A stretch of DNA of 64,000 nucleotides, from contig JBAYIY010000003.1 in the NCBI GenBank assembly GCA_041665365.1, positions 68,260-132,259 of the forward strand, in the 5' to 3' direction. Source of the DNA: Patescibacteria group bacterium. GTDB taxonomy: Bacteria; Patescibacteriota; Patescibacteriia; UBA9570. A program made the translations under genes and the position numbers. Shown piece by piece: positions 32,536 through 52,900 of this stretch (position 1 is its first letter; each line of letters starts with the position of its first letter). Under the pieces are notes generated by a model. It made no database searches. It was not told the origin of the DNA and saw only the letters and a list, made by a program, of their open reading frames with translations.

Positions 32536-33342
32536 ATGCAACAACGCAAAACAATTGGATTAGCCTTAGGCGGTGGCGGAGTTCGTGGTATGGCACACGT
32601 TGGAGTATTACAAGTTTTGTTAGAAAACAATATTCCCATAGATTATATTGCCGGTACCAGCGTTGGTTCATTTATGGCCTCTCATTTTGCTATCCATCAA
32701 GATGTGGCGGCACTGGAGAAATTATCTTTGGGTTATAGAAGAGATAAATTCTTTTCGCTGCTTGAACCAACCTGGCGAGGAGGTTTTGTGAAAGGGGTAA
32801 AAGTGGAACGATTTCTAAAAAAATGGTTGGGAGTAGAGGAGTTTGCTGATGCCAGTATACCATTAGCGGTGGTGGCCACAGATTTGTTAACGGGTGATCC
32901 GGTGATATTTAAGTCCGGGCTGTTAATTCCAGCCGTGCGCGCTAGTATTTCTATTCCATTATTTTTACAACCCTTTCACTTCGATGGCCGTTGGCTAGTC
33001 GATGGTTGGTTAAGTTATCCGATACCCGATCGGGTGGTCAGAGAGATGGGGGCTGATATTGTGATCAGTGTTGATCTAGAAGATTATAAAATGTCACCAC
33101 AGGTGGAACACTATAAGCCAACTTGGCGCGATACCGCTTGGCGCAGTATGATTATAATTAGAAAAAATTTATCTGTTTGTACTACTACTCATACGGATGT
33201 TTTGATCCAACCGCAAATTGCTGAGATTGGCCATGTGGCTTGGAAAAAATATTTCACTAATCATCCTGTGCGCGATATGATTGAGAGTGGTCGAGCCGCG
33301 GCTGAGAAAAAACTACCAGAGATTCGTAAGCTTCTTGCATAG
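32536..33342 (+). CDS. Patatin-like phospholipase
   Basis: The oxyanion motif GLALGGGGVRGMAHVGVL and the lipase motif GTSVGS (GxSxG) are present. Confidence 0.8.
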   Translation: MQQRKTIGLALGGGGVRGMAHVGVLQVLLENNIPIDYIAGTSVGSFMASHFAIHQDVAALEKLSLGYRRDKFFSLLEPTWRGGFVKGVKVERFLKKWLGVEEFADASIPLAVVATDLLTGDPVIFKSGLLIPAVRASISIPLFLQPFHFDGRWLVDGWLSYPIPDRVVREMGADIVISVDLEDYKMSPQVEHYKPTWRDTAWRSMIIIRKNLSVCTTTHTDVLIQPQIAEIGHVAWKKYFTNHPVRDMIESGRAAAEKKLPEIRKLLA

Positions 33343-34762: not shown

Positions 34763-35257
34763 ATGTATTTATTATTACTCATAATTGGTGAGGGCGTAGT
34801 CTACCTGGGGTTGGTTTATGGTTTTTCTATTTTTTTCGAAAAAGCCAAACGGCATAATATTAAAACCAAGCTGTCTTCTATACTGATAATAATGGCCAGC
34901 AGTAGTACTGCAATTATCATCAGCAATTTAATTCCAAATGAAGCACTGGGTAATCGTTTTCAACATTCCATTGGGGGTGGGTTTATCGGTCTGTTGATTT
35001 GTTTTTTGGCCGCGAAAGATTCCGCGGTGAAAATTAACCGTTTACAGTTTGCCGTGTTTAGTTTTTTAATCACCATCACATTAGGAACATTTAACGAAAA
35101 CGCTGAGTTTTATTTGCAAAATTATTGGTACGAAACTTTATATCTAGTTTTTTCCAGAACGGTGAATGATACGTGGTTAGATCTGGTTAGTAACGCCGTT
35201 GGTGCAATATTAGGAGTGATTTGTTTTGTACCATTTTTTCCTGAACGGAAAAAGTAA
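34763..35257 (+). CDS. Hypothetical membrane protein
   Basis: The 164-aa product has 4-5 hydrophobic helices. Confidence 0.3.
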   Translation: MYLLLLIIGEGVVYLGLVYGFSIFFEKAKRHNIKTKLSSILIIMASSSTAIIISNLIPNEALGNRFQHSIGGGFIGLLICFLAAKDSAVKINRLQFAVFSFLITITLGTFNENAEFYLQNYWYETLYLVFSRTVNDTWLDLVSNAVGAILGVICFVPFFPERKK

Positions 35258-35305: not shown

Positions 35306-35875
35306 ATGGTAAAGAAAAAAATAATAAAACAAGTTTTATTCACAAGTATTTTGTTGTTGACCATTGTACCGACAATTACACAAGCAAAGAATTTATTGCA
35401 TAATGGTAACTTTAAATCAATGAGATATTGGGTGATTTCTGGAAAATGTCAAAGAAATCCTGATACTTGTATTCGCGAAAGAATTCCGACAGACTTAAAT
35501 AAGTACAGAGCAGTTTCGCATTATTTCCGCTTTGGTCATGTTAATACAACCGATTCAATTTCTCAAATTGTTAAACTTAGTAAACACAAACTGAAATTAA
35601 AATTTAAATTAAAATTCTTCAATACGTCTGGGAAACACTATAAAAGTGATTTATTTAGCATTATTGTAACCGGTAAAGGGATTGATCGTAGTTGGCGGAA
35701 AGATATTGCATACAATCCCAAAAAACATGGTTGGCAGCAACTAGATTACAATTTGCATAAAATTGCTAAAATAAATCAAGGTGAAGATATTGTTGTTAGT
35801 TTTTTTGTGAAAAATAATAATAGGGGCTTAAGTAAAGCACAAATTACAAATGTTAGATTAATACAGAGTAATTAA
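35306..35875 (+). CDS. Secreted hypothetical protein
   Basis: It has a signal peptide (MVKKKIIKQVLFTSILLLTIVPTITQA) and is Lys-rich. Confidence 0.35.
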   Translation: MVKKKIIKQVLFTSILLLTIVPTITQAKNLLHNGNFKSMRYWVISGKCQRNPDTCIRERIPTDLNKYRAVSHYFRFGHVNTTDSISQIVKLSKHKLKLKFKLKFFNTSGKHYKSDLFSIIVTGKGIDRSWRKDIAYNPKKHGWQQLDYNLHKIAKINQGEDIVVSFFVKNNNRGLSKAQITNVRLIQSN

Positions 35876-35901: not shown

Positions 35902-38900
35902 TTAGAAAGTACCAGTCATAATGTAGGTAATATCAGTGGTGTAGGTGCCGGGTTCGGTGGTGGAAGCAATGTTGGCTAGATAGTAAGCGCTGATGGTTTC
36001 TGTTGTGGTAGTACCAAGCTCACTAAAGAACGGAGTAGTTGCTCCAGCGACGAATTTATATTCAGGTGCACCACCCGTAGCATTATAATCGGCAACGATA
36101 GAACCATCACCATTCGTAGTGATACCAAAGGCAAACTGTTCACTGTTCGGTGAACCATCCGTATCATTTGTAACCGTGGCAGCACTAATGGTGTCTAAAT
36201 CGGTATTGGTGAGTGTAGTGCCAAGATATGTTATAACATACCCACTGGCGGCACTACTAAAGATGGTGAAAGTATGAGCAACGGTTGGGGTAGTGTCAAA
36301 ACCGACTAAATCTCCAGTGGCAAACCGGGCGTTGGACGTGGTCAGATCGCCAAAACCAACCGTAGTGTCGCTGATGGCGAATGTAAGAGATTCAAAATTC
36401 CAACAGGTGTTTCCTGTAGAATTAAGATTAGAAACAGCCGTACCATCTATGTTGGGTGCTTGTCCACAAGCATCAGAATCTTTGACATCAGTATTATATA
36501 TTGAACGAGTACCAACAACGTTTAGGTTCCAATCTGTCGCGGCGATAGAGCTACGTAAGGCTACGCGGGTAGTAATGGTCTGTCCGTTGAAAGAGACGTT
36601 TTGGAATGTGTATGTTCCCCCAGCTAGAAAACGAAGTTTAGTACTGGCCGTCGTTGCCGTGAAGTTACCGGCTGTAGTGGCCGAGGCAGAAAAAATGACA
36701 GATGGTGATACGTCTGGATCAGTGCCTGATGTATTGGTGATGGTTAGATTATTAAAATCAGAGCTACCAGTCATTGTACCATCGAGAGTTTGTTGTGAAC
36801 CTCCAGCTAGGGTGACTGTACTAGAGTTATCGGTGAAGGTTCCAGAATTTGTGTAATTTCCATTGATATTCAACTGGTTTGTACTGTTCGCGGATAGGGT
36901 GGTGCCAGCTCCTATGGTGAGCGCACCGGCAATGGTGGTAGTAGGATCACTAACGTTAAGTTCTAAAGTTTCCGTACCAGCTCCGGAGCGAGAGAGATCA
37001 AGGGTAGATGAAAAGTTCAGTGTCCCTGCAGCCGCGGTTACCGCCCGAGCGACTCCGCTACTGTTATAAATTTCTACTGCACCACCGTATGTTCGAGCAC
37101 CCATAGCTTGGCTATTATTGACTGAATCAAAACGTAACACAGCGGAGATGGTGCCAGTGGTAGGGAAGTTGGTTGGGCTTTGATACGTCAGTTTCCCAGC
37201 CCCAGAAATGGTACCATTCAAGATTAATGTTGCACCACTGTGCGTAAGTACAACACCTGAACTTAAGGCCAACGAATCACCTGTATCGACGTTCAGCGTG
37301 TTTGTCACAGAAGTACTATTTGATAGAGTTGTGGCAGCAGAACTAGCAGTACCAATGATTAAGTTATAAAAATTCAGAGTTGGTGTAGTCCCGCCGCCAA
37401 TCGAACCTGTTCCGGTCATGGTCACAGTAGGTGTACCGGCAGATTTTGTGACGATAGCCGACGTTCCAGCTGTTGTAATATCTCCACCGGTTACAGCAGT
37501 GTCTGCATCAATGTTAAGCGTGGCACCGCCATCCACCAAAAGATCTCCGGCAATGGTATTTGTTGCGGTATCTAGATAAGCCGTAGCATTATCATCCACA
37601 TGCATATTTGCACTAGTAGTAGTAACCGTGCCACCCGGATCATATGATTTACTATCTTTAATATGTAATTCCATGCCGGAATCAACAGCTATATTGCTTC
37701 CAGTCATCCCATAAAGAATACCAGCGTCACCATTATCGGCGGTGATTAAGTTCGCATTAGTGATGGGTCCAGCGCTTTCGTGTGTCAGCACAACTCGGTC
37801 GCGGTAAATATCCAAATTACTAATAGCAGATCCATCAGCTGCCAGTGTAATGGTTGTGCCATCGGGCGTTTCTCCGCTATCAATAAATACGACAACTGGT
37901 TGCCCGGCTGCTGGTGTAGTAGCTGTTACCGTATATGCACCAGTATCTGCAGAACAGCTGCCATCTGCATTAGCTCCGCCGTTTACTGATACATGAATAG
38001 TTAATGGATCGGCGTTACAATCGTAGACTGTGGATTCGTTTGTGCCGCGGATAAATCCTGTAATGGCAACTCCCGCGGTACAGGTCCAATTCGTGTTACC
38101 AGAATCGCAATAGTTTGTCCCATTAGTCGCGTCAATCACTGCTCCGGAAAGGGTTGCGTTAGAATCCTTGACATTGGTATTGGAAACAGACCGTGTGCCA
38201 GTGGCCGCAAGCAGCCAAGCTGATCCGGTGGAAGAAGAGCGTAGAAATACTCTGGATGAGATGTCCAACCCATCAAACATAATATTGGTCAGTGTATAGG
38301 TGGAGGTAGCATTGAAACGAATTTTTACATTCGCTTCGGTTGCGGTAAAGGTACCGGCCGTGGTGGCCGCAGTAGAAAAAATAACAGAAGGAGAAGCATC
38401 AGGGTCAATACCAGAATTATTCGTAATAGTCAAAGCATTAAAATCAGAGGTGCCAGTCATAGTCCCGGCCATAGTTTGTTGGCTACCACCAACCAGAGAT
38501 ACAGTTCCAGAATTGTCCGTGAAAGTTCCATTATTGGTGTAATTCCCGCTAAGATTCAATGTGGCCGGAGCGCTAAACACAGTTGTTGCACCTATCGTCA
38601 GGTCGCTAGCAACTGCCGTAGTTCCGGTCGCTGCACTTAAATCAGTCGTTACCTCTCCGGCTCCACCGGCGGCAGTTGTAAGCGTTGAGGAAAAGATATA
38701 ATTCCCAGCCGCGGCTGTGATGGATTTGGCTGCTCCATTATTAGCGTAGAGTTCAACTGCCCCGCCGTATGTTCGTGCATCAAAGGTAGTATTAGCTATG
38801 CTGGCGGTACTAGCATCGTATCTCACCACAGATGACAAGGTACCAACCGCTCCAGGACCACTTGAGGTATTAAGGATGCGCAATGTGCCGGTACCAGAAA

Positions 38901-41900
38901 TTGTCCCATTCAAAGTCAGTGTAACTCCGCTGTGTGTCAGCATGACCGTGGTGATGGTAAGAATGTCGCTGGTATCAACATTAATAGTACCGGCAGCTGT
39001 ACAATTATCTGTTTGCATAGTCCAGGTGCCACTACCATCGCTGCCAATAAAGGTCACACTACTAAATGAAGAGGTTCCGCACTCTATCGTGTTATCAGTA
39101 TCGGCCGCATCAAAAATGACAGTTCCACTGGAATGCGTAAACGTCGCATTGTTATCCCAGTTACCACCTACATTAAATGTTCCAGTACCAGATGCAATCA
39201 GAGTGGCAGCGGCTGAAATAGTGATATTACCATTCACATCAAAGGTTGGATCATTTGTGTCTAAATTAAAAATACCGGCCGTGGCACTATCACCGACCAC
39301 CAAATTACCCAATACTGAAAACGTTCCACCACCGTTGGCATGAAAAGTGACCGCGCCGCTCGGCCGTACGCTCAAATTCCAATAGGATTCAAGTTGAATA
39401 TCCGTGGCTGCGTTACCAATGAAATCCACAGTTGAGTTTGTTCCCTCGTTTAAGGTGCCGGAGACAATAAATGGACGAGAAGCACCTTGCCCAGAACCAG
39501 TCAGGGTAAGGGTATAGCCAGATGATCCTAGTGCTAATGTGTCACCCGTTGTGACATCAACCTTCGTTGCTCGAGCATTCCCTGTTAATGTCACTGTTGA
39601 TGGTGCACCATTGATGGAAACTAAGCCAATATCTTGCCCAGATGAAGCATCAGACCAATTAGCTGCTCCGCCGTCAAATGTCCAGGTAGCGGTTCCGTTA
39701 TCGGCTTTAGTGACCAAGCCACTGGCGCCGATAGTTACGTTACCGGTCGTAGTTACATTCGGGTCGAGCACGGCCAAATCCAAGTCACCGTCCGTGATGG
39801 TAAAAGTACCGTTCACATCCAGATTGCCATCAACGTTCAGATCATCTGTTGCACCAGCACTGCCGGTGTTATTAAGTGTAATATCTTGGTAGGTCTCAGC
39901 GCCCGTCGTAAATGTTTGAGCGGCCGACGTGCTGTTGAATGTAATAATACCGCCGGTGGTAGCAGTGTATGCCGCGGAACCCGCCACAATAAAATCTCCG
40001 GACACGGTGATGCTGTTGTTATTTGCAGTCCAATTGCCAACGCCAGTCGTCGCAGTATCGCCGATTTCGATGTGAGTGGAAGTCACATCACCGCCGCCAG
40101 CAGAAGCCGGTTGGAAGGTATCGCCATCATCAATGTATAATTCTTCCTGACTAGATTGTGCTTCCGCATCCACCGTTAGATCGTTATCGACACTGACATC
40201 CCAAAACACATCGTCATCGCCGATAGCAACTGAATTGTCATAGACACCAACATCGCCATTGGTGATAGTTTGACCATCGACACTACCAATAGTGAGGTGT
40301 TCCTTAAACAAAGGGATGTTCGTCATGTCACCACTGCCATCGTATTTCGCCACTGCCCCGGATCGATCGGACATACTAGCAGCCGCATCAACCCATACCG
40401 TTACGATTTGACCGGTGGTAACTGTGACACCAGTGACTTCCCATGTACCAGCAATCACAGTATCTTCTTGCGCTTGCACACTGCCATCCACTGCTACTTT
40501 AATTGTACCGATATCTGTACAGTCAGTAGATTGGTCGAACGCATCACATGTTCCTGAAACGGTGACGGTGGGTGCTACTAATGTAGTAGCTCCTGAAATT
40601 TCTCGATCGTAAGCTGGGCCGATGCCTCCAGTGGATACTGCTACATCCGTTGATGGGGTGGTAATTTCTAATTCAACGGTTTCACCAGCCGAGGCCCCAG
40701 ATGTGATATCTAGCACTACATAGACACACATGGTAGAGGTCGGTGTGATTGCGACAGAACCAGTGAAGGTTGATGTGCCATCAGCACTACTGAACCCATC
40801 GGTATCAGTAGAGCCGTATTGCGTTTCTGTACCGGCAAATGATTCACTCGAACAATTATAAGGAGCGCTGGTGTCCGGCTCGTAATAGAGTTTGATGTTA
40901 TCCAAATCAGCTTGAGCATCCACCGTGCCATACTCAGTAATCATGATACTGGTAATGTTGGCAGTGGCAAGTGACTCGTTGATGGAGAAGGCTCCACCCA
41001 TGGAATTACCCGTTGTGTTAATAGTGACAGAAGAGGTTTGTGTACCTAACACGTTGACATTGGCGGTGTTAGAAGCCCGAAAGGCAAAGTCATATGGCTT
41101 GGTCGGCAATGATGTGGTAAGCGTCGCACCGGTAGACAAATCTGCTTCCCAAGCTCCCATGGTGGCTGTTTGGGTTAACCAAGTGCCGGTGGAAGCACCA
41201 TTCCACAGTTGGGATTCAGGTACTAAATCCAGTGTAAGGTCTTCCGCATTGAGCATGATTTTGTCTGATGATGGATCTGGAGAAAGATCAATACCCGACG
41301 GAACGTCAGCCCAAACCCCCAAACCTGAACACGGCCCATTCGAATCTTCTGCCGCTGATAAGTTGGTGACTTGTTCAGTGGTACCGGCTCCGCCTTCAGT
41401 TAACAAACAGAGTGAAGCATCGTCTATGGTCTGGAATTGCCCGGCCGACACATCAAATACCATCCAACGTAGTGCTGTTTCAGATGTAGTCCCGTCACGC
41501 CAAGCAAACAAGGCTCGATCCCCACCACCTTGCTCCCATTCCACATCTATCCCCTGGGCAAAGCCATTACTGTTAATGTCAACGTCCATGGTGGTAGGCT
41601 GTGTAATGGTTGTCCAATCTGAACCGTTCCACATGTCCACATTCATGTCAGCCGTATTGGTAGAGGCAGTGTCCTGCACAATCACGGCAATATAGTCGTT
41701 ATTTGGGCTGTCCGCGATCCGTAACCACTGCACAGCAGCCCCAGGATCTGTCATGCCAGTAGTGTCCGACCAACCGCTGCCCACGGTGTAGGTTGAAGCG
41801 TCAATAAACGGCGCTGCAGTGACATCGCCATACACAATCATACCCTCACCAGAGGAACCTTCCCAAGCAACGTCAAAATCTTGGCGTGTGGAGAGGCCAT

Positions 41901-44178
41901 TTTCCGCATTGATCTGAGCGATGTCCTGCCAGGCTGACCCATCCCAGCGTGCGCCATACACACCAAGATTGGTCCCTTCCCGCCAGCCGCACAAAATATT
42001 ATCTGTCCCAGGATCTGATTCGCACTCCACCCAGCGCGCAACATCATTACCTTGGTCGACACCGGAATAGTCAATTGAAGATTCACCAGACCAACTAGCG
42101 CCATCCCAAGTTTGATATTTAAGTGCCCCGTCACCTGTGGAACTATTTTCGTAAACTACAATGGCATCACCCGTATCACTTTCATAAGCAATATCAAAGC
42201 CGCGGTAAACATCATTCGTGGTGCCAATACCAGTTTCAAAATCTCCGTTGGTCGGTGCGTTAGTGCCATTAATCCACGCCGAAGTCGGACCATTATAGAT
42301 CTGGACATCTAAATGACCAGAGGCATTCAGCCGCCCCATCGTATATTCATTTCGATTTGGTGCTGATTCAATAATAGTGTGATTCGTATCATCACTCGCG
42401 GTTTCGTCGTCTTGTAGTTGACTTTCAGCGCTTAAATCCGTTGTGCTCCAGGTGCGATAGTGAGGAGTGGTATTATTGGCACCATCTTCGTCATACACTA
42501 ATATGCCTGTACCATCAGGCGTATCCGATGCAATTTGCCATGCTCTATCCTCTTCCCACACAGTGTTGTCTGTGACTAACAATACTAATGGGCCAAGTAA
42601 ATAGAGTTCTGGACTGATGTCAGGGGCGTCAAAGGTATAGCTTAGCTCGTAGGTTTCACCTGCTGTCCAATTCACATCCCAGGTGATGGTTCCACGACTC
42701 ATGGCACCGTCACCTTGATTAGAGATGACAAAATCCTCTGGAAAAGATTCCTGGACGGTACCGACAAAATTCGCTCTGGGTGTTACGCTAAACTCCATAG
42801 TGTAGGGTGCCATTGGCCAAATTCTAGTTGGACCAACTCGTTCAACTTCAAACTCTGGAGCCTTTTCGACATCATAATAATCACTAATCTCGTATTCGCC
42901 ATTGGCGGTGGTGGCCGTTAATTGCAGTTCAAACCGCCCAGTTTCGGAACCGTTATCAAAATAGGTATAATAATCTGGCAGTTCTACCACCGTGTCGCCG
43001 GCACATTCACTGCTGTAGGTAATACTGCCATCATTGGTAGATAGAGTGGTAGCTGTTCCAAGCGGAGAAGTGATAATTAAGTCCAGTTCGGCATCACATA
43101 ATGTGTGACCAGTTTCGTCCAACACTCCCATTTGAATAAAGGCTTGATCATCGGGGGCGAAGGTTCCTTGATTAACGTTGATGGTTAATACTCCCCAACT
43201 AAAGTCACGGGTGATAGTGGTTGTTTTTCCATTTTCATCGACAGTGATTGAAAAAGTATATTTTCCTGGTTTAGTAAAGTTATTTGTTCTGAGTTTATAC
43301 TCGGCATTTGAGTAACCATCCTTGGTTGTATTCTGTAAGTCATATTCAGGAGTTATAGTCTGACCATCCGGATCAATCAGTTCAATTTGTTCAACTGTGC
43401 GTTGCTCAGTAGTAAAACCTAGTTTTCCCCAAAAATCCTCATCTTTAATACCCGCTACAGTAACACTAGGTGTTTGGCCTTGTTCAAAATCGGGAGCGGG
43501 TAGTGTGATTGCTTCGTCAAGTGATGGTTTTTCAGGACGTTGAAACTCTAACTGTACTGCCACACCATCCAGCAACGCTTGTGTGGATTGGTCTGTGGGC
43601 ACCGCATCATATGCAACTTTGATTTTTAGTTGAGACAACGTGGTTTGAATATTATTTGCATCTAGGGTTAAGGGATATGTCCAATACCCACCATGTTTCG
43701 CATTATCATTATCCTCAACGAAGGCGAAAGAATCCAATGGTAGCCAAGTGTTGTCAGTTGTTTGGACAAATAATGAGACAACGTCTTCATTGTCCGTATA
43801 TCCATCAAGCGCGAGAGAAAAAATAACCTCAACTTTATCCAGTGTTTGTCCATCAGGAATGTTACTAGGCCAAACAAAGTCAGAACACACAATACTTGGA
43901 TTGGCTGTAGTTATCTGTTCCGCTGGTTGATTATAAAAGACAGCCGAGTTTTGTTCAGAAAATTGTTTTTTTCCGTCACTGCCTAATAAATCAATCGTGG
44001 TAGCCTGAGCCGCATGTTCCCAACCGACGCAATTAGTCGGTTGAACAGTTAAGGTTAGGCTGTTATTTTTCTCGGCCTTAACTGAAGGTATTGTTTTCCA
44101 ACCAATCAACAAGATAATAAAAAAGATCACTAAACTAAAGGTGCTAGGTAAGTTACGTTGATGTCTAAGTGCAGCCAT
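35902..44178 (-). CDS. Giant (~2,760 aa) secreted Thr/Gly/Ser-rich surface protein (putative adhesin) with internal ~340-aa duplications and a conserved ~165-aa C-terminal domain
   Basis: It is a single uninterrupted ORF. The preferred start is the ATG (MAALRHQ...) just after the upstream stop, followed by a hydrophobic signal or anchor. Two ~340-aa segments are about 70% identical. The last ~165 aa are homologous to the C-terminus of ORF 45616-46677. Confidence 0.7.
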   Translation of the reverse strand: MAALRHQRNLPSTFSLVIFFIILLIGWKTIPSVKAEKNNSLTLTVQPTNCVGWEHAAQATTIDLLGSDGKKQFSEQNSAVFYNQPAEQITTANPSIVCSDFVWPSNIPDGQTLDKVEVIFSLALDGYTDNEDVVSLFVQTTDNTWLPLDSFAFVEDNDNAKHGGYWTYPLTLDANNIQTTLSQLKIKVAYDAVPTDQSTQALLDGVAVQLEFQRPEKPSLDEAITLPAPDFEQGQTPSVTVAGIKDEDFWGKLGFTTEQRTVEQIELIDPDGQTITPEYDLQNTTKDGYSNAEYKLRTNNFTKPGKYTFSITVDENGKTTTITRDFSWGVLTINVNQGTFAPDDQAFIQMGVLDETGHTLCDAELDLIITSPLGTATTLSTNDGSITYSSECAGDTVVELPDYYTYFDNGSETGRFELQLTATTANGEYEISDYYDVEKAPEFEVERVGPTRIWPMAPYTMEFSVTPRANFVGTVQESFPEDFVISNQGDGAMSRGTITWDVNWTAGETYELSYTFDAPDISPELYLLGPLVLLVTDNTVWEEDRAWQIASDTPDGTGILVYDEDGANNTTPHYRTWSTTDLSAESQLQDDETASDDTNHTIIESAPNRNEYTMGRLNASGHLDVQIYNGPTSAWINGTNAPTNGDFETGIGTTNDVYRGFDIAYESDTGDAIVVYENSSTGDGALKYQTWDGASWSGESSIDYSGVDQGNDVARWVECESDPGTDNILCGWREGTNLGVYGARWDGSAWQDIAQINAENGLSTRQDFDVAWEGSSGEGMIVYGDVTAAPFIDASTYTVGSGWSDTTGMTDPGAAVQWLRIADSPNNDYIAVIVQDTASTNTADMNVDMWNGSDWTTITQPTTMDVDINSNGFAQGIDVEWEQGGGDRALFAWRDGTTSETALRWMVFDVSAGQFQTIDDASLCLLTEGGAGTTEQVTNLSAAEDSNGPCSGLGVWADVPSGIDLSPDPSSDKIMLNAEDLTLDLVPESQLWNGASTGTWLTQTATMGAWEADLSTGATLTTSLPTKPYDFAFRASNTANVNVLGTQTSSVTINTTGNSMGGAFSINESLATANITSIMITEYGTVDAQADLDNIKLYYEPDTSAPYNCSSESFAGTETQYGSTDTDGFSSADGTSTFTGSVAITPTSTMCVYVVLDITSGASAGETVELEITTPSTDVAVSTGGIGPAYDREISGATTLVAPTVTVSGTCDAFDQSTDCTDIGTIKVAVDGSVQAQEDTVIAGTWEVTGVTVTTGQIVTVWVDAAASMSDRSGAVAKYDGSGDMTNIPLFKEHLTIGSVDGQTITNGDVGVYDNSVAIGDDDVFWDVSVDNDLTVDAEAQSSQEELYIDDGDTFQPASAGGGDVTSTHIEIGDTATTGVGNWTANNNSITVSGDFIVAGSAAYTATTGGIITFNSTSAAQTFTTGAETYQDITLNNTGSAGATDDLNVDGNLDVNGTFTITDGDLDLAVLDPNVTTTGNVTIGASGLVTKADNGTATWTFDGGAANWSDASSGQDIGLVSINGAPSTVTLTGNARATKVDVTTGDTLALGSSGYTLTLTGSGQGASRPFIVSGTLNEGTNSTVDFIGNAATDIQLESYWNLSVRPSGAVTFHANGGGTFSVLGNLVVGDSATAGIFNLDTNDPTFDVNGNITISAAATLIASGTGTFNVGGNWDNNATFTHSSGTVIFDAADTDNTIECGTSSFSSVTFIGSDGSGTWTMQTDNCTAAGTINVDTSDILTITTVMLTHSGVTLTLNGTISGTGTLRILNTSSGPGAVGTLSSVVRYDASTASIANTTFDARTYGGAVELYANNGAAKSITAAAGNYIFSSTLTTAAGGAGEVTTDLSAATGTTAVASDLTIGATTVFSAPATLNLSGNYTNNGTFTDNSGTVSLVGGSQQTMAGTMTGTSDFNALTITNNSGIDPDASPSVIFSTAATTAGTFTATEANVKIRFNATSTYTLTNIMFDGLDISSRVFLRSSSTGSAWLLAATGTRSVSNTNVKDSNATLSGAVIDATNGTNYCDSGNTNWTCTAGVAITGFIRGTNESTVYDCNADPLTIHVSVNGGANADGSCSADTGAYTVTATTPAAGQPVVVFIDSGETPDGTTITLAADGSAISNLDIYRDRVVLTHESAGPITNANLITADNGDAGILYGMTGSNIAVDSGMELHIKDSKSYDPGGTVTTTSANMHVDDNATAYLDTATNTIAGDLLVDGGATLNIDADTAVTGGDITTAGTSAIVTKSAGTPTVTMTGTGSIGGGTTPTLNFYNLIIGTASSAATTLSNSTSVTNTLNVDTGDSLALSSGVVLTHSGATLILNGTISGAGKLTYQSPTNFPTTGTISAVLRFDSVNNSQAMGARTYGGAVEIYNSSGVARAVTAAAGTLNFSSTLDLSRSGAGTETLELNVSDPTTTIAGALTIGAGTTLSANSTNQLNINGNYTNSGTFTDNSSTVTLAGGSQQTLDGTMTGSSDFNNLTITNTSGTDPDVSPSVIFSASATTAGNFTATTASTKLRFLAGGTYTFQNVSFNGQTITTRVALRSSIAATDWNLNVVGTRSIYNTDVKDSDACGQAPNIDGTAVSNLNSTGNTCWNFESLTFAISDTTVGFGDLTTSNARFATGDLVGFDTTPTVAHTFTIFSSAASGYVITYLGTTLTNTDLDTISAATVTNDTDGSPNSEQFAFGITTNGDGSIVADYNATGGAPEYKFVAGATTPFFSELGTTTTETISAYYLANIASTTEPGTYTTDITYIMTGTF

Positions 44179-44179
44179 C

Positions 44180-45523
44180 TTATTTAGTATGTGTTTTGGT
44201 ATTTTTATGATTGTGCAGATGTACCGACCGTCTTTTATGAATGAACCCAAAGATCCAGAGATACACCAACACAATGATGAGTAGTATGAACAAAACAATC
44301 GCTAACCAATAATATGTAATAAAAATTATTCCAAGATAAAAGCCAACCCCTGGCCATTGTTCAACAATTGTTATAGTTGTTTTGGCGTCAGTAACATTTC
44401 CAGCTTTGTCTAAAGCCAAAACAGTAATGGTATGCTCACCATACGATTGTTCATCTAAGGTTATATTAGTCAGTTTGGCTGGTGTAATCTTGGCAAATAT
44501 TACTTGGCTATCAACTAGCACTGTATAAAAATCTATACCTGAAGTCTCATCTGCTGTGTAAAAATTAAAAGTTGGTCGACGATTTTTTGTAATAGAATCC
44601 GCATTTAAATTAATTGTAAATACTTTTGGAGGAGTATTATCTATCATTATCGTATAGTGGCGAGTTTCGCCCCAACTGGTGTCATTGCCTGATTTCACAT
44701 GAAAATACCAAATGCCATCCTGGCTGTTTGGCAACTCGGCAACGTTGTTGGTTCCTTCCACAGTATCATCTGGAACAGTATCCAGTTTATCATCATAGCT
44801 CCAACTAAAACGGGTCGCCCCAACAATTGGATCGAAACTAATTGTACCGTCATCATTGTTATACCACTGCTTTTGCTCAGATTGTATGCCATTAATAGTA
44901 ATTGGCATGGGTGATGGCAAGGTCTTCTCAGCTGTCGTTTTTTCCTCTTCTGTTAGTGTTTCTTCTGGCTTAATATATTTGGCCTTGTTTTCAACTGATA
45001 CTGGCGGTGGTAATGTTTGTGCTGCGATATTGTAAGTGGCTCCAGCAGCCCCGCCATATATATTCGTTCCTAACCCATCATTGGCCAAAATTTTTCCACC
45101 AACAACACTGAGTACAGCTGATCCATTAGCCCTGGCTTTAAAGGTGATACTAATAATAGTGCCATGCCCGCTATAACCAGGTGAGGCAACTCCACCGGAA
45201 AAGGAAATGGTGCTACTGGAATAAGATGGTTCTGACGTCCAGAGGGTAAAAATACCACCCTTACTAACACTAACAACTTCTAATTTGTCACCCGGATAAG
45301 TAACGGTAGCTTGAGCTGCATTTATTGCCACACCACCTGTATTGATAGCCACGGCAACAGTTTTGGTCTCGCCAATTTTCATGGTTCCCGTGGCAGGTGA
45401 TAATCCCAATGTGGCCATTGCCCAGGCGGATGAAGGAATTAACCAAACTAGTAACCCAACGATCAAGGTGAAAGTGAAAACAGTACTGTTTTTACTAAAC
45501 GTCATATTAAGAGATACTAACAA
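44180..45523 (-). CDS. Cohesin-domain cell-surface protein with a C-terminal transmembrane anchor
   Basis: It has a signal peptide. The cohesin-like block reads AAQATVTYPGDKLEVVSVSKGG...GTIISITFKARANGSAVL. The C-terminal hydrophobic anchor is LAIVLFILLIIVLVYLWIF, followed by a basic tail. Confidence 0.7.
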   Translation of the reverse strand: MLVSLNMTFSKNSTVFTFTLIVGLLVWLIPSSAWAMATLGLSPATGTMKIGETKTVAVAINTGGVAINAAQATVTYPGDKLEVVSVSKGGIFTLWTSEPSYSSSTISFSGGVASPGYSGHGTIISITFKARANGSAVLSVVGGKILANDGLGTNIYGGAAGATYNIAAQTLPPPVSVENKAKYIKPEETLTEEEKTTAEKTLPSPMPITINGIQSEQKQWYNNDDGTISFDPIVGATRFSWSYDDKLDTVPDDTVEGTNNVAELPNSQDGIWYFHVKSGNDTSWGETRHYTIMIDNTPPKVFTINLNADSITKNRRPTFNFYTADETSGIDFYTVLVDSQVIFAKITPAKLTNITLDEQSYGEHTITVLALDKAGNVTDAKTTITIVEQWPGVGFYLGIIFITYYWLAIVLFILLIIVLVYLWIFGFIHKRRSVHLHNHKNTKTHTK

Positions 45524-45615
45524 AATTTTTTATGATTGGCTACAGGTTTATGTGAGGGGTTGATCTCGATTGTATTGTGTGCTATAATAATCCCATTATA
45601 ATAATAATAAAAATT

Positions 45616-46677
45616 ATGAAAAGAAGAATGCAAATATTTGGAAGTGTGATTGTTCTGGTGATGGTATTAGGCTTTTTATTGCCATTACGTCAGGTTCAAG
45701 CCGCTTCATTGACCAATACAAAAGACGTAATGAGTACTGAAACTGCTACAGCCAATGCAAACCACACCATCTCATTTATCTCACCGTCCGCCATTACAAA
45801 TGGATCAACCATTACATTGACATTCCCGGCCGGGTTCGATTTAACTGGTATTATTGAAGATGATATTGACATTGCTGGTTCAACGGAAGGGGAATTAACG
45901 ACCGCGGCTGACTGTACGGGTTCAGAAAAAGCCGGTATTGCTAGCCCTGGTGCCCAAGTTATTACTATTAATTTGTGTGCTGCTGACGGAGGAGATTTTA
46001 CTGGCTCAGAAACTGTTACAATTGAGATCGGTACGAACGCAGCCTCTTCTGGTACAGGAGCTAACCGAATTGATAACCCAGGAGTAGGTGCTTATAAGAT
46101 AGCCATTGGAGGCACTATGACAGACGCTGGGTCTTACGCTGTATCTATTATTGCCGATGATAGTGTTAATATCACGTCTACTGTTAATCCTACACTTACC
46201 TTTGCGATCAGTGATACCGCAATTGGTTTTGGCACATTGACCACGGCTAACGCCAGGTTTGCTACAGGGGATTTAGTTGGTGCTGATACTACTCCAACCA
46301 TTGCTCATACCTTTAGCATTGCTACTAATGCCACTACTGGTTACTCAATCACTTATAATGGAACCACACTGACCAATGCTGATGCTGACACAATTGATGT
46401 TGCCACTATTGCTAGTGATGATGACGGCACACCAAATTCGGAACAATTTGCTTTTGGTGTTACCACTAACGGAGATGGTACTATTGTCCCTGCTTATGAT
46501 GCCAATAGTTCAGCTGAATATAAGTTCATTGCTGGAGCAACTACTCCATTCTTTAGCGAGCTTGGTGCCACTGCTACTGAAACTATTAGTGCATACTACA
46601 TTGCCAATATTGCCGCCACCACTGAGGCCGGTACCTACACTACCGACATTACTTACATTGCAACAGGAACTTTTTAA
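45616..46677 (+). CDS. Secreted protein sharing the ~165-aa C-terminal domain of the giant protein (possible surface-structure subunit)
   Basis: It has a signal peptide after the ATG at 45616. The C-terminus TFAISDTAIGFGTLTTANARFATGDLVGADTTPT...TYTTDITYIATGTF is about 75% identical to the giant protein's C-terminus. Confidence 0.55.
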   Translation: MKRRMQIFGSVIVLVMVLGFLLPLRQVQAASLTNTKDVMSTETATANANHTISFISPSAITNGSTITLTFPAGFDLTGIIEDDIDIAGSTEGELTTAADCTGSEKAGIASPGAQVITINLCAADGGDFTGSETVTIEIGTNAASSGTGANRIDNPGVGAYKIAIGGTMTDAGSYAVSIIADDSVNITSTVNPTLTFAISDTAIGFGTLTTANARFATGDLVGADTTPTIAHTFSIATNATTGYSITYNGTTLTNADADTIDVATIASDDDGTPNSEQFAFGVTTNGDGTIVPAYDANSSAEYKFIAGATTPFFSELGATATETISAYYIANIAATTEAGTYTTDITYIATGTF

Positions 46678-46703: not shown

Positions 46704-47714
46704 ATGAAAAAATCATTGTTAAAGAGATACAATGTGATAATGATGGTCGTTTTAGTTGGGTTTGGCTTTTTATTCTGCACATCACCGGCTCAGGCACTCA
46801 CTATCATTCCACCCTCCATGGAAATCGATCTCACTCCAGGTGTACCTTATAATGATCAGATTAAACTGTTTAATGAAACAGACTATCCTGTTACACTTTA
46901 TACTGAAATAACGAACTTTACGGCATCCGATGACGGAACAAAACCACAGTATGAATTTGGATTGGAATTAACTGATGTCGCAACTTGGATCCAAGTTGAA
47001 CCAGGTCCCTTTGTGCTGCAACCAAAAGAACGAAGAAGTGTTCCGTTTATTATTAACCCACCAGCAGAGGCTGATCCAGGTGGGCATTATGCGATTATAT
47101 TTTTCTCTAATAACCCACCCCAAATCAAAGAACCAGGTAAGGTCAAAATTGGTTCTAAATTAGGTACACTCATCTTATCTAATGTAGCCGGAGACATTAC
47201 AGAGGCAGGCAGCATTGATAGTTTTTTAACCGTCGATAAGTCTGTTTATTTTAATTATTTGCCAGTGCAACTACAACTGACATTCAATAATACTGGTAAT
47301 GTACACATTCGGCCTTCTGGTACTATTACCATCCAAAATATTTTTGGAAAAACCGTTAAAACACTCGATATCAATACGGTTGGTTCAGCTACTTTGCCTA
47401 AGACTGCCAGAAGTTACCAAACGGTTTGGGAAAAAGCACCAGTTTTGCATACAACGAATAATTGGTTAGGACAATTTTGGGAGGAGTTAAAAAATGAAAA
47501 AGATAATTTTGCTTTTGGAAAATATACTGCCTCCGCTTCACTAGTGGCGGGACAAGATAATCAAATTACAAAACAAGCAGTGGTTAGTTTTTGGGTAATT
47601 CCCTGGAGGCTTCTGATAATATTTTGTGTTGGTGCTATAATTATTTTGTTAGGTTTAATTAGAATGATTAAAGGCTACAATCGTTGGATCATTCGACATG
47701 GACAGAGTAAATAA
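46704..47714 (+). CDS. Secreted protein with a C-terminal transmembrane anchor, function unknown
   Basis: It has an N-terminal signal peptide and a beta-rich ectodomain. The C-terminal helix is WRLLIIFCVGAIIILLGLIRMI, followed by basic residues. Confidence 0.45.
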   Translation: MKKSLLKRYNVIMMVVLVGFGFLFCTSPAQALTIIPPSMEIDLTPGVPYNDQIKLFNETDYPVTLYTEITNFTASDDGTKPQYEFGLELTDVATWIQVEPGPFVLQPKERRSVPFIINPPAEADPGGHYAIIFFSNNPPQIKEPGKVKIGSKLGTLILSNVAGDITEAGSIDSFLTVDKSVYFNYLPVQLQLTFNNTGNVHIRPSGTITIQNIFGKTVKTLDINTVGSATLPKTARSYQTVWEKAPVLHTTNNWLGQFWEELKNEKDNFAFGKYTASASLVAGQDNQITKQAVVSFWVIPWRLLIIFCVGAIIILLGLIRMIKGYNRWIIRHGQSK

Positions 47715-48603
47715 ATTTTCATTTGCAGTGAAGGAAGTGACTAAACAACAAATTCGTTTTCTTCTGACTGTATTATGTGTTAGTTCAAGTTTTTTTATTT
47801 CGCAGCCACTTTTAACTCAGGCCATTGGTGTTAGTTTGACTGCTACAGTGACTGGATCCTCACCAGAAGAGCCAATTACAACCGTCATTATTGAGGGGTT
47901 TGCTTATCCAACAACTAATGTTTCTATCCGAGAAAATGGAAAAATAATAGCGATTACTCCAGCTGACTCCCAAGGATGGTTCACTGTGACCATTAACAAC
48001 ATTAATCCAGGTATTTATACTTTCTCTGTCCACGGGGAAGACATAAAAGGACGAAAAGGCCCAGATATAAATGTTACTGTGGCTATAAGCAAAGGAGTGA
48101 CCATTACCATCTCTGGTATTTATTTAGGGCCAACCATTGCAATTACTCGTAATAATATTTTTTTAGATGAAATAACTACAATACTTGGCACTAGTGTTTC
48201 AGATAGTCGCGTCAACATATTTATTAAGGCAGAAAATAATCAGCAGACAATTTTTAATAAACAGGCTAATCATAACGGGTTTTACTCAAAATCCATCTTA
48301 GGTAGTACTGTAGGCGAGGGTAGATACACAACTTATAGTCGTGTCGTTGCGTCAGACGGAACAATTTCTGATCCTAGTAAAACACTTGTCTTTACTGTTT
48401 CGAATGAAGCAAACACCTCAACTTGCGCCAACTCTTTAGATAGTGATATTAATTGTGATGGGGAAGTAGATTTGATAGATTTTAGCGTCTTGTTGTATTG
48501 GTGGAATCAGGCTAATCCGAGTAATGCCCGGGCCGATATCAATGGCAATGGGTTAGTTGATGTGGTGGATTTTAGTATCATGTTATATTATTGGACCGGA
48601 TGA
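47698..48603 (+). CDS. Secreted Ig-like protein with a C-terminal type-I dockerin domain
   Basis: It has a signal peptide. The C-terminus DSDINCDGEVDLIDFSVLLYWW...DINGNGLVDVVDFSIMLYYW is the canonical duplicated calcium-binding dockerin repeat. Confidence 0.7.
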   Translation: MDRVNKFSFAVKEVTKQQIRFLLTVLCVSSSFFISQPLLTQAIGVSLTATVTGSSPEEPITTVIIEGFAYPTTNVSIRENGKIIAITPADSQGWFTVTINNINPGIYTFSVHGEDIKGRKGPDINVTVAISKGVTITISGIYLGPTIAITRNNIFLDEITTILGTSVSDSRVNIFIKAENNQQTIFNKQANHNGFYSKSILGSTVGEGRYTTYSRVVASDGTISDPSKTLVFTVSNEANTSTCANSLDSDINCDGEVDLIDFSVLLYWWNQANPSNARADINGNGLVDVVDFSIMLYYWTG

Positions 48604-49904: not shown

Positions 49905-52900
49905 ATGGTTTGGCAACGTCATAACATGAATTTCAGCGTTTTTCCAGTATTTGTTAGTGTTGTTGTTTTTGGATTGTTATCAGCGCACTCCGCGTTAGCA
50001 GCCACCTACACCGTCAGTAAAACTGCGGATACCAATGATGGCACTTGTGATGCAGATTGTTCGTTACGTGAAGCGATTACAACAGCCAATGGTGCTTCCG
50101 GCAATAGCATTGAGTTTAATATCAATGGCGGCACGGATGCTGGCTGTACCGGTGCCGGTGGGGTTTGTACGATTACTCCTGCCAGTGCCTTACCAGATAT
50201 TACCGGCGCCTCAATGACAATCAATGGGTATACTCAAACTGGAGCAGTCGCTAATACTACAGCCAATGGCAGTGTTGTGACTGGTATCAATGGATTAAAT
50301 ACAACTTTACGAATCGTGCTGGATGGTACCTCAGCCGGTGGAGCAGCTAATGGACTAAAAATCAATGGGGTAGCTAATGTAGTAATTAAGGGCTTAGACA
50401 TAATGCGCTTTGGTAGCAATGGTGTGTTGGCTACGGGAGCAGGAGCGACTAACTTGAAAGTGCAGGGTTGTTTTATTGGAACAGATGTTACCGGAACACT
50501 GGATCAGGGAAATTCTGGCAATGGAGTAGCGGCTGTCACTGGCGCTACAGTTATCGTGGGTACCGATGGTGATGGTGTGACTGACGTAGCGGAACGTAAC
50601 TTGATCTCTGGCAATAGTACTTATGGCATTAACATTGCCGGTGGCACAGGTAGTAAAGTTTCAGCGAATATAATTGGCCTAGCTAGTGATGCCAGCACTG
50701 ATCTGGGTAACTTAGGTAACGGTGTTTATGCAACAGTCTCATCAACCATCATCGGCACCAATGGTGATGGCACCAGCGATACGATTGAAGGCAATATTGT
50801 GTCAGGGAATGATCAAAGTGGGATTAACATTAATGGTGGTGGTTCAGATACTATTACTGGTAATATTGTCGGTCTGAATGGTGTTGGCACCACTACTGTC
50901 CGCAATACTTTGAATGGTATCTTGTTGTTTGGCACCGGTTCGAATCGAGTGGGCACCAATGGCGATGGTGTCAGTGATACCTATGAAAGAAATGTTTCAT
51001 CCGGTCATTCTGGTAATTTTTATTATGGCTTAGAGGTGATTAGTCCAAGTAATACTGTGGCGGGAAATTATTTTGGCACGGATATTACCGGTACAGTCCT
51101 GCATGGAAATTTACGTAATGTACTTGTATCCGGCAATAATAATATTATTGGCACAAACGGCGATGGTAATGGAGATACCGTAGAAGGCAATGTCATAGCT
51201 GGTGGTACTGGCGCCGATGGTCTGTATATCAGTACCGTGGCAACTATCACAGTTGCGGGCAATAAGATTGGTACAGATTATTCAGGCACAGCCGCGCTGG
51301 GCAATACCCATGGTATTCGGATTGATGGAACAGATTCAGGCATTGTAATTGGTACCAATGCCGATGGTGTGTCCGATAGTGCCGAGCGCAACATTATTTC
51401 CGGTAATCAGGTGGGTATTTTCATGGAACAAGGGTCTTCCAATACTGTGATTGCCGGTAATTATATTGGTTTGAATACTGCTGGTACGGGCACAGTTGGT
51501 GGCTCATATGGTGGTAATCGCTATGGTATTAGTATTGGTCGAATATGGCCTGGGGCGGGTACATCCAGTGACAATCGTATCGGTACGAATGGCGATGGGG
51601 TGAATGATGCCGCTGAGGCTAATGTTATTTCTGGTAATTATACTTATGGAGTGGTCATGGCCACCGGCAATAGTAATACGATCGCTGGCAACTATATTGG
51701 CACCGGTCCAGATGGAGTGACAGAGTTTGCTAATGGTGAAGCAGGCATTGCGTGGTACGATGGTGCTCCTGACGTTTCCAATAGTTCAAGTAACACTATT
51801 GGTGGTGATACTATAGCTGAAGGCAATGTTATTGCGTCTAACGGTTCTTATGGTATTGAACTAAGCGGGGTATCCAGCGATGGCAATTTAATTAGCCATA
51901 ATAAGATGTTTTCTAATCTACTTGAAGGTATTTTTCTTCCCGGTGATGGCTCAAATAATGATATGAGTGCCCCAGTCATTACTAGTTGGGCACCAAGTGG
52001 ATCAGATTTAACTATTTCCGGAACCGCTCCGGCCAGTGCGGTAGTTGAATTATTTGATGCCTCCACCGATGAAGGAGAAACCTATCTTAATGCCGCCACT
52101 GCGAATGGGTCTGGTAATTGGTCAACTACGATCAGTGCCCCCTATACAGCGGCTAATAATACTTTGGTCGCAACCGCCCGAGATGGCAGCAATGATACAT
52201 CCATGTTTAGTGCTGTGTATACTATCACGGATATAGCGCCGACTACACCAACCGATCTGCAAACCTCCAGTCTGTTTGGGGGTTGTGGATCAGATAGTAC
52301 TCCAGAGTTTTCTTTTACGTTAACAGATAGTGATGTCGTAGATACGGTTGGTTATCACATTCAGATAGATAATGATGCAGATTTTTCATCACCCGTGGTT
52401 GATTACAACTCAGGGTTAGCTGCTCAAGGCACAGCCTCATTTGTAGTTGGCCAAGCCGTTGGCTCTGGTGTATATACCACTGGTTCTGCTGGACAAACGT
52501 TAACAGACGGAAGTTATTCTATGCGGGTGCAAACCATTGATTTTCTTAGTCAAACATCAGCTTATGTCACACAAACATTTGGAGTTGATAATGGTGTCAC
52601 AGTTAGTACACCCGCATCAGCCACCACATCCGAATTAGGTGATACAACTACTTTCACAGTGGTGTTAGCTTGTCTGCCACAAAATGACGTGACTATACCT
52701 GTAGTCAGTTCAGATACCACTGAAGGTAGTGTTTCCACGGCGGCACTCACTTTTACTACTGGAAACTGGAATGTGGCACAAACTATTACAGTGACAGGAG
52801 TAGATGATTCTAGTTCAGATGGTAACATTAATTATTCAATCCAATTAGGTCCAACCACTTCGAGTGATACGGCTTATAGTGGGGTCACCATAGCTGATGT

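Follow-up and report, generated by a model that had tools for sequence, protein, structure and literature searches.

Why do a giant protein and a small protein of the same bacterium end in the same domain? The question is raised by a locus in a stretch of 64,000 nucleotides (nt) from a Patescibacteria group bacterium (assembly GCA_041665365.1, contig JBAYIY010000003.1, positions 68,260 to 132,259 of the forward strand), which we refer to as the window and whose own numbering is used below. Here, a secreted protein of 2,758 amino acids (aa), the giant, and a secreted protein of 353 aa share their C-terminal domain. We consider it likely, with a probability of roughly two thirds (0.68), that both belong to a Pam-type pilus, in which the shared domain would be a strand acceptor, the small protein the shaft pilin and the giant the tip adhesin.

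The shared C-terminal domain

An earlier note on this sequence, made without database searches, had read an identity of about 75% between the two C-termini, which is borne out by the alignment. BLASTP with the last 182 residues of the giant against the 353-aa protein gave 122 identical residues in 162, 86% positives and one gap (expectation value (E) 3e-80). The alignment runs to the last residue of the giant and covers residues 193-353 of the small protein, so that both C-termini are reached. A tblastn search found exactly two copies of the domain in the whole window, at 46171-46674 (+) and 35905-36390 (-). As the earlier note had also seen, both proteins end in TGTF, directly before the stop codon, with no hydrophobic segment at the C-terminus; both carry a signal-peptide-like hydrophobic segment at the N-terminus. 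Two details needed adjustment. The giant, whose long open reading frame (ORF) spans 35902-44298 (-), has 2,758 aa according to the gene call on the source contig (ATG at 44178), not 2,760. The divergent arrangement reported around a cohesin gene is correct for the operon of the small protein as opposed to the pair of giant and cohesin gene; the cohesin gene itself lies on the same strand as the giant, directly upstream of it. The small protein was translated from ORF 45577-46677 (+); in the gene call of the source contig it begins four residues after the start of the 353-aa form, at the alternative start 45628, which yields 349 aa.

The domain had not been recognised as a known family in the earlier note. 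This no longer holds, since a curated NCBIfam model (NF058581, CPR_Pam_pilin_C; CPR, candidate phyla radiation) and a cryo-electron microscopy (cryo-EM) preprint of 2026 (10.64898/2026.03.03.709456) describe it. NF058581 (NCBIfam release 20, cut-off 55 bits) matched the small protein with 57.8 bits (E 1.3e-15) over model positions 12-148 of 148, all 61 of its 61 homologues (best E 7.7e-25) and the C-terminal domain of the giant, scanned alone, with 52.4 bits (E 5.9e-14). The PamT model NF058579 matched both proteins weakly (E 1.6e-8 for the domain of the giant); this score is far below the equivalog cut-off of 240 bits, and the giant is therefore not a PamT orthologue. On the strength of these profile matches, we assign the shared domain to the C-terminal domain family of the Pam-type pilins of CPR bacteria.

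Pam pili are known from Candidatus Mycosynbacter amalyticus, with the components PamA, PamB, PamE, PamT, PamC, PamD and PamR (Troman et al., bioRxiv 10.64898/2026.03.03.709456). In the cryo-EM filaments, a linker strand joins the N-terminal domain of PamA and PamB to a truncated immunoglobulin (Ig)-like C-terminal domain and is donated to the next subunit. PamT was proposed from AlphaFold models to be a tip subunit that consists of the C-terminal domain only (10.64898/2026.03.03.709456).

A phmmer search of the full library with the C-terminal domain of the giant returned 311 representative clusters, and in essentially all of the best 150 of these 311 matches the domain is terminal, on proteins of 115 to 2,735 aa. 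In Pfam, no model for the domain was found with both proteins and the 61 homologues, the only matches being scattered chance hits to Ig-like families. No meaningful match was obtained in sequence searches of the PDB, whether the query was the pilin, its profile or the giant, and the PamA/PamB entries 25PZ and 25QA were absent from the matches of both local PDB searches.

The small protein as probable shaft pilin

The 353-aa protein, called pilin below, is most likely the shaft subunit of a fibre. Its homologues form 378 clusters at E <= 1e-3, nearly all of 350-375 aa, and every cluster that carries a name is from the Patescibacteria (Kerfeldbacteria, Nomurabacteria, Paceibacterota, Doudnabacteria, "Patescibacteria group" and similar). 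An AlphaFold2 (AF2) model built on 61 sequences has a mean predicted local distance difference test score (pLDDT) of 92.7 and contains strands only, arranged in two domains that are split by residues 176-189 of the 349-aa form. As modelled, the protein has the architecture of a Pam pilin, that is, a signal peptide, a beta-sandwich domain, a single linker and the C-terminal domain. Foldseek with the whole model against the PDB was uninformative, returning only generic two-Ig-domain adhesins and integrins with TM-scores of about 0.2-0.26.

The linker is among the best conserved stretches of the pilin family: D177 and V186 are invariant, and D178 and V180 are conserved in at least 90% of the sequences. 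All 40 of the 40 listed pilins carry the pattern [IV][IV]xDD[SQT]Vx[IV][ST]AxV[DN]P (core DDSVxVTATVDP) directly before the domain. This agrees with the preprint, in which conservation is highest in the donated linker and in the site that binds it.

The giant protein as proposed tip subunit

The giant consists of a signal peptide, a passenger of about 2,590 aa rich in Thr, Gly, Ser and Asn, and the Pam-type domain at the C-terminus. The segment that precedes the domain reads ...NSTGNTCWNFE and contains no donor linker. The same is true for all 30 listed large proteins of this kind (the giant of the window and 29 others), which lack the linker motif and in which the similarity starts exactly at (S/T)(I/L)(T/S)FxISD. 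Having an acceptor domain and no donor linker, the giant would only accept a strand, which places it at the tip of a fibre, where it most likely acts as adhesin. Judged from its sequence, the giant is a subunit in the position of PamT with a passenger of about 2,590 aa, and acceptor-only subunits appear to span the range from PamT-sized proteins to giants.

The passenger has no sequence match in Pfam, NCBIfam or the PDB. It contains an internal duplication of about 400 aa with 42% identity (residues ~1630-2160 versus ~2195-2595, nt ~36400-40900), which became visible only by direct comparison of the two modules; a blastp self-comparison of the giant gave no off-diagonal match, and the gene has no tandem repeats at the DNA level. 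The second copy of the duplication abuts the C-terminal domain. The gene of the giant has a G+C content of 44-50%, versus 32-40% across much of the window.

The full-length giant has no match in NCBIfam. In six giants of related loci (L007, L008, L011, L019, L022 and L044) the domain was missed as well when hmmsearch was run on the full-length proteins; with the last 260 residues alone it was found in the same six at E 1e-35 to 1e-60. The composition bias of long, low-complexity proteins probably explains why the domain is missed. Since full-length giants escape the curated hidden Markov model (HMM), such tip proteins probably stay unannotated ("hypothetical").

The domain of the giant is 75% identical to that of its own pilin, versus 69% to the closest domain of a foreign large protein (L003). 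The identity within a genome exceeds the foreign one in 7 of 28 loci, and values within genomes range from 36 to 84% with a median of 57%. This pattern suggests occasional gene conversion, or co-evolution with a donor strand and a chaperone used by both proteins.

Related loci and conservation of the operon

We collected 78 related CPR loci from species-representative genomes, called their ORFs and searched these with HMMs of the C- and N-terminal domains, the chaperone and the neighbours. The conserved operon comprises a large domain-ending protein, one to three pilins, a chaperone, a protein with Ig-like domains and a dockerin, and cohesin membrane proteins. The chaperone is present in 76 of 79 loci, the dockerin protein in 64 and the transmembrane (TM) cohesin protein in 59, with one to three cohesin-like TM proteins per locus. 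Across the loci the domain match ends exactly at the C-terminus of the protein in 158 of 162 family members. No usher was found among the conserved operon families, whose proteins have no more than a signal segment at the N-terminus and a single helix at the C-terminus.

A large domain-ending protein (593 to >3,282 aa, 17 being cut by the edge of the locus) is found in 37 of the 57 loci with enough upstream sequence. Because a protein of at least 500 aa that ends in the domain adjoins the pilin gene in these 37 loci, the pairing of giant and pilin is not due to chance. Six further loci have a PamT-like protein of 235-377 aa in that position, which carries the domain and lacks the pilin N-terminal domain. 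Another 11 loci have a different layout, with a second, divergent domain protein of about 365 aa and no large protein nearby.

This second layout (L016, L026, L032, L039, L048, L049, L052, L057, L060, L071 and L079) runs from the pilin and a chaperone to the divergent protein, followed by one to three more chaperones. The divergent protein matches the domain at E 1e-5 to 1e-9 and has no match to the pilin N-terminal domain. Several of these loci additionally have, upstream, a protein in which the pilin N-terminal domain is fused to a dockerin, and also a cohesin-like protein. With its several pilins and chaperones, the second layout resembles the published operon of M. amalyticus.

The dockerin and cohesin proteins

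Downstream of the chaperone gene lies a gene for a protein of 301 aa, in which a strand directly behind the signal peptide is followed by a spacer rich in Pro and Glu, Ig-like domains and a C-terminal dockerin; a TM helix is absent. Dockerin_1 is matched by 53 of 60 homologues of this protein. The strand motif [VIL]x[VIL][ST][AG]x[VI] occurs within the first 110 residues in 54 of 58 dockerin-protein homologues, the other four having near variants, compared with a background rate of 27 in 647 ORFs (4%). Examples are VTVTATV, VSISATV and, in the window, VSLTATV; by eye, the motif stands close behind a signal-peptide-like segment. It resembles the V-x-V-T-A-T-V of the pilin linker. In many dockerin proteins (L013, L015, L020, L021, L029, L033, L035 and others) a poly-Gly run of about 8-15 residues comes right after the motif, and others have the Pro/Glu-rich spacer instead; such a segment resembles a flexible connection from the strand to the Ig-like domains. 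In six loci the dockerin protein is replaced by a pilin N-terminal domain joined to a dockerin, with no acceptor domain, and a linker-like strand between the two parts was seen in only two of these six.

The first cohesin protein of the window consists of a signal peptide, the cohesin, a Big_13 Ig-like domain and a TM helix. The stop codon of its gene abuts the start codon of the giant, and the two genes are therefore probably co-transcribed. The second, cohesin-like protein has no Pfam Cohesin match of its own and was recognised by its similarity to the first.

In Pam pili, AlphaFold models led to the proposal that the terminator is PamR, an RbmA-like protein that has a strand at its N-terminus and a TM helix (10.64898/2026.03.03.709456). 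From its domain order, the dockerin protein is predicted to be a donor-only terminator that is held by the cohesin proteins and takes the place of PamR. We found no paper joining CPR pili to cohesin-dockerin pairs, and a role in tethering a pilus base is, as far as we found, undescribed.

The chaperone-like protein and its kinship with WxLIP

The gene next to the pilin encodes a protein in which a signal peptide is followed by two beta-sandwich domains and, at the C-terminus, a TM helix (residues 301-335; pLDDT of the AF2 model 91.5). Its best Foldseek match in the PDB is the Enterococcus faecium locus A WxLIP bound to the long WxL protein (9i25_C, E 7e-11); apo WxLIP (9i1y) was found too. The next matches are CsuC, Caf1M, CfaA and DraB, with TM-scores of up to 0.58 relative to the target, and taken together the matches to WxLIP and to chaperone-usher chaperones lie at E 1e-8 to 1e-10. 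PF06030 (WxLIP_PGBD, DUF916) is matched by 44 of 62 homologues of the chaperone, and a PDB sequence search with the family profile gave EfmWxLIP1 as best match (E 0.05). DUF3324 is missing from the 25 families that the homologues match most often, and their second domain matches generic Ig and Fn3 models. NCBIfam gave neither a Pam chaperone model nor a consistent match for the family.

PamC and PamD were proposed from AlphaFold models to be PapD/FimC-like chaperones with a C-terminal TM helix (10.64898/2026.03.03.709456). According to its predicted structure, the chaperone-like protein fills the role of PamC/PamD and is the counterpart of the WxLIP (DUF916) proteins of Firmicutes. By this kinship the CPR system is connected with the WxL clusters of Firmicutes, which contain a small WxL protein, a large WxL protein and WxLIP, the latter built as DUF916-DUF3324-TM (PMC10599100, PMC9772566). 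In AF2 models a strand of WxLIP inserts into WxL (PMC10599100), and strand insertion by the chaperone is likewise predicted for Pam (10.64898/2026.03.03.709456).

Homology of the shared domain itself with the WxL domain is unsupported. It has no Trp-x-Leu motifs, and none of 61 pilin homologues matches PF13731 at E up to 1. We compared an alignment of 293 domain sequences with one of 52 WxL sequences, the latter drawn from real clusters on plasmids of Enterococcus, Lactococcus and Lactiplantibacillus together with 44 further WxL proteins. With hhalign only the last strand was aligned (AGTYTTDITY versus AGTYSGTIDY, 17 columns, probability 1.1%), a similar result of about 1% was obtained with 8 WxL sequences, and the global mode aligned nothing. 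A reversed-template control scored equally, and the likeness of the terminal strand is therefore not evidence. The domain HMM found nothing in actinobacterial WxL-like proteins.

On two actinobacterial plasmids, the gene of a DUF916 protein is directly preceded by that of a small secreted protein (L081, 7227-8804, Arthrobacter NZ_CP099467.1; L082, 7101-8915, Clavibacter NZ_CP040796.1), and the small protein of Arthrobacter has a weak Pfam WxL match (E 5.5e-4). The CPR chaperone homologue P0150 finds the actinobacterial DUF916 genes at E 7e-6 in a tblastn search that returned no Firmicutes plasmid.

Tentatively, a single ancient fibre system without an usher, belonging to bacteria that lack an outer membrane, might have two branches, the Pam pili of CPR bacteria and the WxL-WxLIP clusters found in Firmicutes and Actinobacteria. 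A membrane-anchored PapD-like chaperone (WxLIP/DUF916 corresponding to PamC/PamD) would assemble such fibres by strand complementation. The role of tip adhesin with an acceptor domain would fall to the large WxL protein in one branch and to the CPR giant in the other, and in many CPR lineages the base would be tied by cohesin and dockerin. If true, WxL proteins would have to be re-read as pilus-like components and not as simple peptidoglycan binders. We found no paper that joins WxL to donor-strand or chaperone-usher assembly.

Proposed assembly

Among the roles that the earlier note had offered for the domain, the polymerisation domain of a pilus-like subunit and its tip adhesin is the one that we retain, while an S-layer, a secretion-system C-terminal domain and sorting are unsupported. 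In the assembly that we propose, all parts would be exported by Sec. The C-terminal domain would be an incomplete Ig-like fold, the missing strand of which comes from the next subunit by donor-strand exchange. The membrane-anchored chaperone would cover the groove that each subunit leaves open and pass the subunit on for strand exchange at the membrane. The giant, which lacks a donor strand, would take the linker of the first pilin and display its passenger distally as an adhesin, and further pilins would join at the base by strand exchange, with no usher. Finally, the donor-only dockerin protein would plug the last, proximal pilin, end growth and tether the fibre to the two cohesin membrane proteins.

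Homology of the domain, protein architectures, the fold of the chaperone, synteny and the distribution of the linker motif are what the data show directly; polymerisation, polarity, the tip position, cohesin-dockerin anchoring and the adhesin function are inferred. Several points weigh against this assembly. The domain of the giant, scanned alone, lies just under the cut-off of NF058581 (52.4 versus 55 bits), and the full-length giant has no NCBIfam match, probably because of the composition correction of HMMER. The likeness of the dockerin-protein strand to the pilin linker amounts to a motif of seven residues, and complementation by it is putative. Pfam Cohesin is matched by only 24 of 57 members of the cohesin family and not by the second copy in the window, and the chaperone of the window has no PF06030 match in the Pfam scan. 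Polymerisation is extrapolated from a Saccharimonadia species, to which the homology extends only at profile level. Furthermore, PDB entry 9i25 is a stable WxLIP-WxL complex from Firmicutes, which makes a static display possible for the giant.

Alternative readings

Such a static display is the main alternative, especially for the giant. The domain would be held permanently by the WxLIP-like protein (46704-47714), and the proteins would be shown individually, as in WxL systems, without forming a fibre. We favour polymerisation because the linker is conserved in the pilins and missing from the large proteins, and because a separate donor-only protein exists; without polymerisation, this strict distribution is hard to explain. 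The domain moreover belongs by profile to a family seen as donor-strand filaments in cryo-EM, and it has no detectable similarity to Pfam WxL (0 of 61 homologues; hhalign about 1% with an equal reversed control). A static display is thus unlikely, even though the best structural matches of the partner are the WxLIPs of E. faecium, including the crystal complex with the long WxL protein (9i25), 44 of 62 partner homologues match PF06030, and WxL clusters likewise pair a small and a large protein having a common C-terminal domain with a TM-anchored WxLIP (PMC10599100).

A second possibility, which we regard as improbable, is that the giant forms a fibre or an S-layer-like coat by itself, the domain being an oligomerisation or wall-binding module unrelated to pili and the small protein a base or adaptor. 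Large secreted fibre and adhesin proteins are long, repetitive and rich in Thr, Gly and Asn, as is the passenger, which also has no match to any known adhesin domain. Such a coat leaves the NF058581 match, the chaperone and the donor-only dockerin protein unexplained, however, and the passenger is dispensable for the system, because 6 loci swap the giant for proteins of 235-377 aa and 11 have no large protein.

That the domain is a sorting or secretion signal cut or read by a dedicated machine (the C-terminal domain of type IX secretion (T9SS), PEP-CTERM with exosortase, LPXTG with sortase), as its extreme C-terminal position on proteins of very different sizes might suggest, can practically be set aside, since it is a folded beta domain of 160 aa predicted at high confidence, neither Pfam nor NCBIfam scans gave a match to any of these signals, no TM segment, sorting motif or basic tail follows it (the pilin ends ...TYIATGTF), and no sortase, exosortase or T9SS gene was found among the conserved neighbours of the loci.

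Features of the locus and its surroundings

The features discussed above are collected in Table 1.

Table 1. Genes and protein segments of the pilus-like locus, in window coordinates.
Feature	Position	Strand	Basis
Giant secreted protein, 2,758 aa, proposed tip adhesin	35902..44178	-	translation, source-contig gene call
C-terminal domain of the giant, 162 aa, SLTFAISDT...TYIMTGTF	35905..36390	-	75% identical to that of the pilin
Membrane-anchored cohesin-domain protein 1, proposed anchor	44180..45505	-	Pfam Cohesin, Big_13
C-terminal TM helix of cohesin protein 1	~44231-44350	-	hydrophobic segment
Cohesin domain of protein 1	45116-45379	-	30.9 bits versus cut-off 24.1
Proposed shaft pilin, 353 aa	45616..46677	+	NF058581 above cut-off; AF2 model
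Signal peptide of the pilin	45616-45702	+	
N-terminal beta-sandwich domain of the pilin	45703-46152	+	
Linker ADDSVNITSTVNPT, putative donor strand between the two pilin domains	46153-46194	+	conservation, Pam structures
C-terminal domain of the pilin, 160 aa, proposed donor-strand acceptor	46195-46674	+	BLASTP, NF058581
Membrane-anchored chaperone-like protein, 336 aa	46704..47714	+	AF2, Foldseek; gene directly after pilin
Donor-only dockerin protein, 301 aa, proposed base/terminator subunit	47698..48603	+	Pfam Dockerin_1, Big_6, Big_13
Strand GVSLTATVTG directly behind the signal peptide of the dockerin protein	47827-47856	+	
C-terminal dockerin of the 301-aa protein	48445-48582	+	Dockerin_1, 26.7 bits versus cut-off 22.9
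Membrane-anchored cohesin-like protein 2, 397 aa, with C-terminal TM helix	48560..49753	+	phmmer paralogy with 44180-45505

The scanned flanks contain genes for PEP synthase, YsxC GTPase, transketolase, aldehyde dehydrogenase, MurJ, DnaG and RpoD. Because these are chromosomal housekeeping genes, the locus hardly resembles a mobile element. The operon is followed directly by a gene for a secreted protein of 1,922 aa (49905-55673, +). This protein combines an N-terminal CSLREA domain with a NosD-like beta-helix and with Big_9/cadherin-like, DUF11 and CarboxypepD_reg domains, and hydrophobic segments lie close to its C-terminus. It lacks the Pam domain, and its conservation is limited to the three closest loci. 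A gene for a patatin-like phospholipase (RssA-like, E 4e-41; 32536-33342, +) lies a few genes from the 3' end of the giant, and between the two lie genes for two small proteins without family match (34763-35257 and 35306-35875, both +), one a membrane protein and one secreted. We saw no link between these three genes and the pilus operon.

What the locus adds

The domain itself is not new, being covered by the 2026 preprint and NCBIfam; the operon variant is not previously described. Three things go beyond the published description. These are the giant acceptor-only proteins, conserved in many CPR genomes and proposed to sit at the tip, the module of donor strand, dockerin and membrane cohesin in place of PamR, and the chaperone's demonstrable relationship to WxLIP/DUF916.

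It was not until 2026 that Pam pili were described, for one cultured Saccharimonadia parasite, and the giants are concrete candidates for the host-binding element. As highly variable fusions to an acceptor domain that would sit at the tip of a fibre, they could set the host or surface specificity of episymbionts. The locus family is kept in dozens of genomes, and its named members come from other CPR groups. The locus also suggests that a fibre could be anchored differently, through a donor strand, a dockerin and a membrane cohesin. Through the kinship with WxLIP/DUF916, the WxL clusters of lactic acid bacteria, enterococci and Listeria, which are poorly understood, become linked to the CPR system, and a common mechanism becomes testable.

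Comparison with known systems

The closest relatives are the Pam pili. By the curated HMM the domain family is the same, and the pilin of the window shows the order of N-terminal beta-sandwich, single linker and acceptor domain. Further likenesses are an acceptor-only subunit without linker (the giant here, PamT there), a TM-anchored PapD-like chaperone, the lack of an usher and the restriction of all named homologues to the Patescibacteria. Pam pilins have been reported mainly in Saccharimonadia and Microgenomatia, with ATP synthase genes near the pam operons (10.64898/2026.03.03.709456), whereas the named homologues found here are from Kerfeldbacteria, Nomurabacteria, Paceibacterota, Doudnabacteria and similar groups. 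The acceptor-only subunit has 2,758 aa here and more than 3,280 aa in relatives, compared with the single domain of PamT. Moreover, the operon of the window contains no PamR-like protein with a strand, a fibronectin type III pair and a TM helix of its own; it has the protein with donor strand, Ig-like domains and dockerin and the separate cohesin TM proteins instead. The preprint makes no mention of cohesin, dockerin, WxL or DUF916 (10.64898/2026.03.03.709456).

With the WxL/Csc clusters the locus has in common a small and a large secreted protein that end in the same C-terminal domain of about 160-180 aa and are encoded beside a TM-anchored protein with two Ig domains. The differences lie in the domain, which in the window has neither a Pfam WxL match nor Trp-x-Leu motifs, in the WxL proteins, which are described as peptidoglycan-bound and not as filaments, and in the gene content, since the WxL clusters that we retrieved have LPXTG proteins and no dockerin or cohesin genes.

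Chaperone-usher pili (Fim, Pap, Csu, Caf1, CFA/I) resemble the system in the two-domain PapD-like fold of the chaperone and, going by the Pam preprint, in incomplete Ig-like subunits that are completed by a strand. They also have a tip adhesin with an acceptor domain and no donor strand (FimH, PapG), and growth from the base is implied in both cases; the giant is about ten times larger than FimH or PapG. In contrast, the system of the window has no outer membrane and no usher, its chaperone is anchored in the membrane, and the donor strand would be an internal linker between domains and not an N-terminal extension. There is no sequence similarity between the two systems.

Cellulosomes, finally, share with the operon the pairing of Cohesin and Dockerin_1, which here score above the curated cut-offs on two separate proteins and recur across the loci. 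Enzymes are absent from the operon, and the cohesin-dockerin pair is proposed to tether the base of a pilus to a membrane protein.

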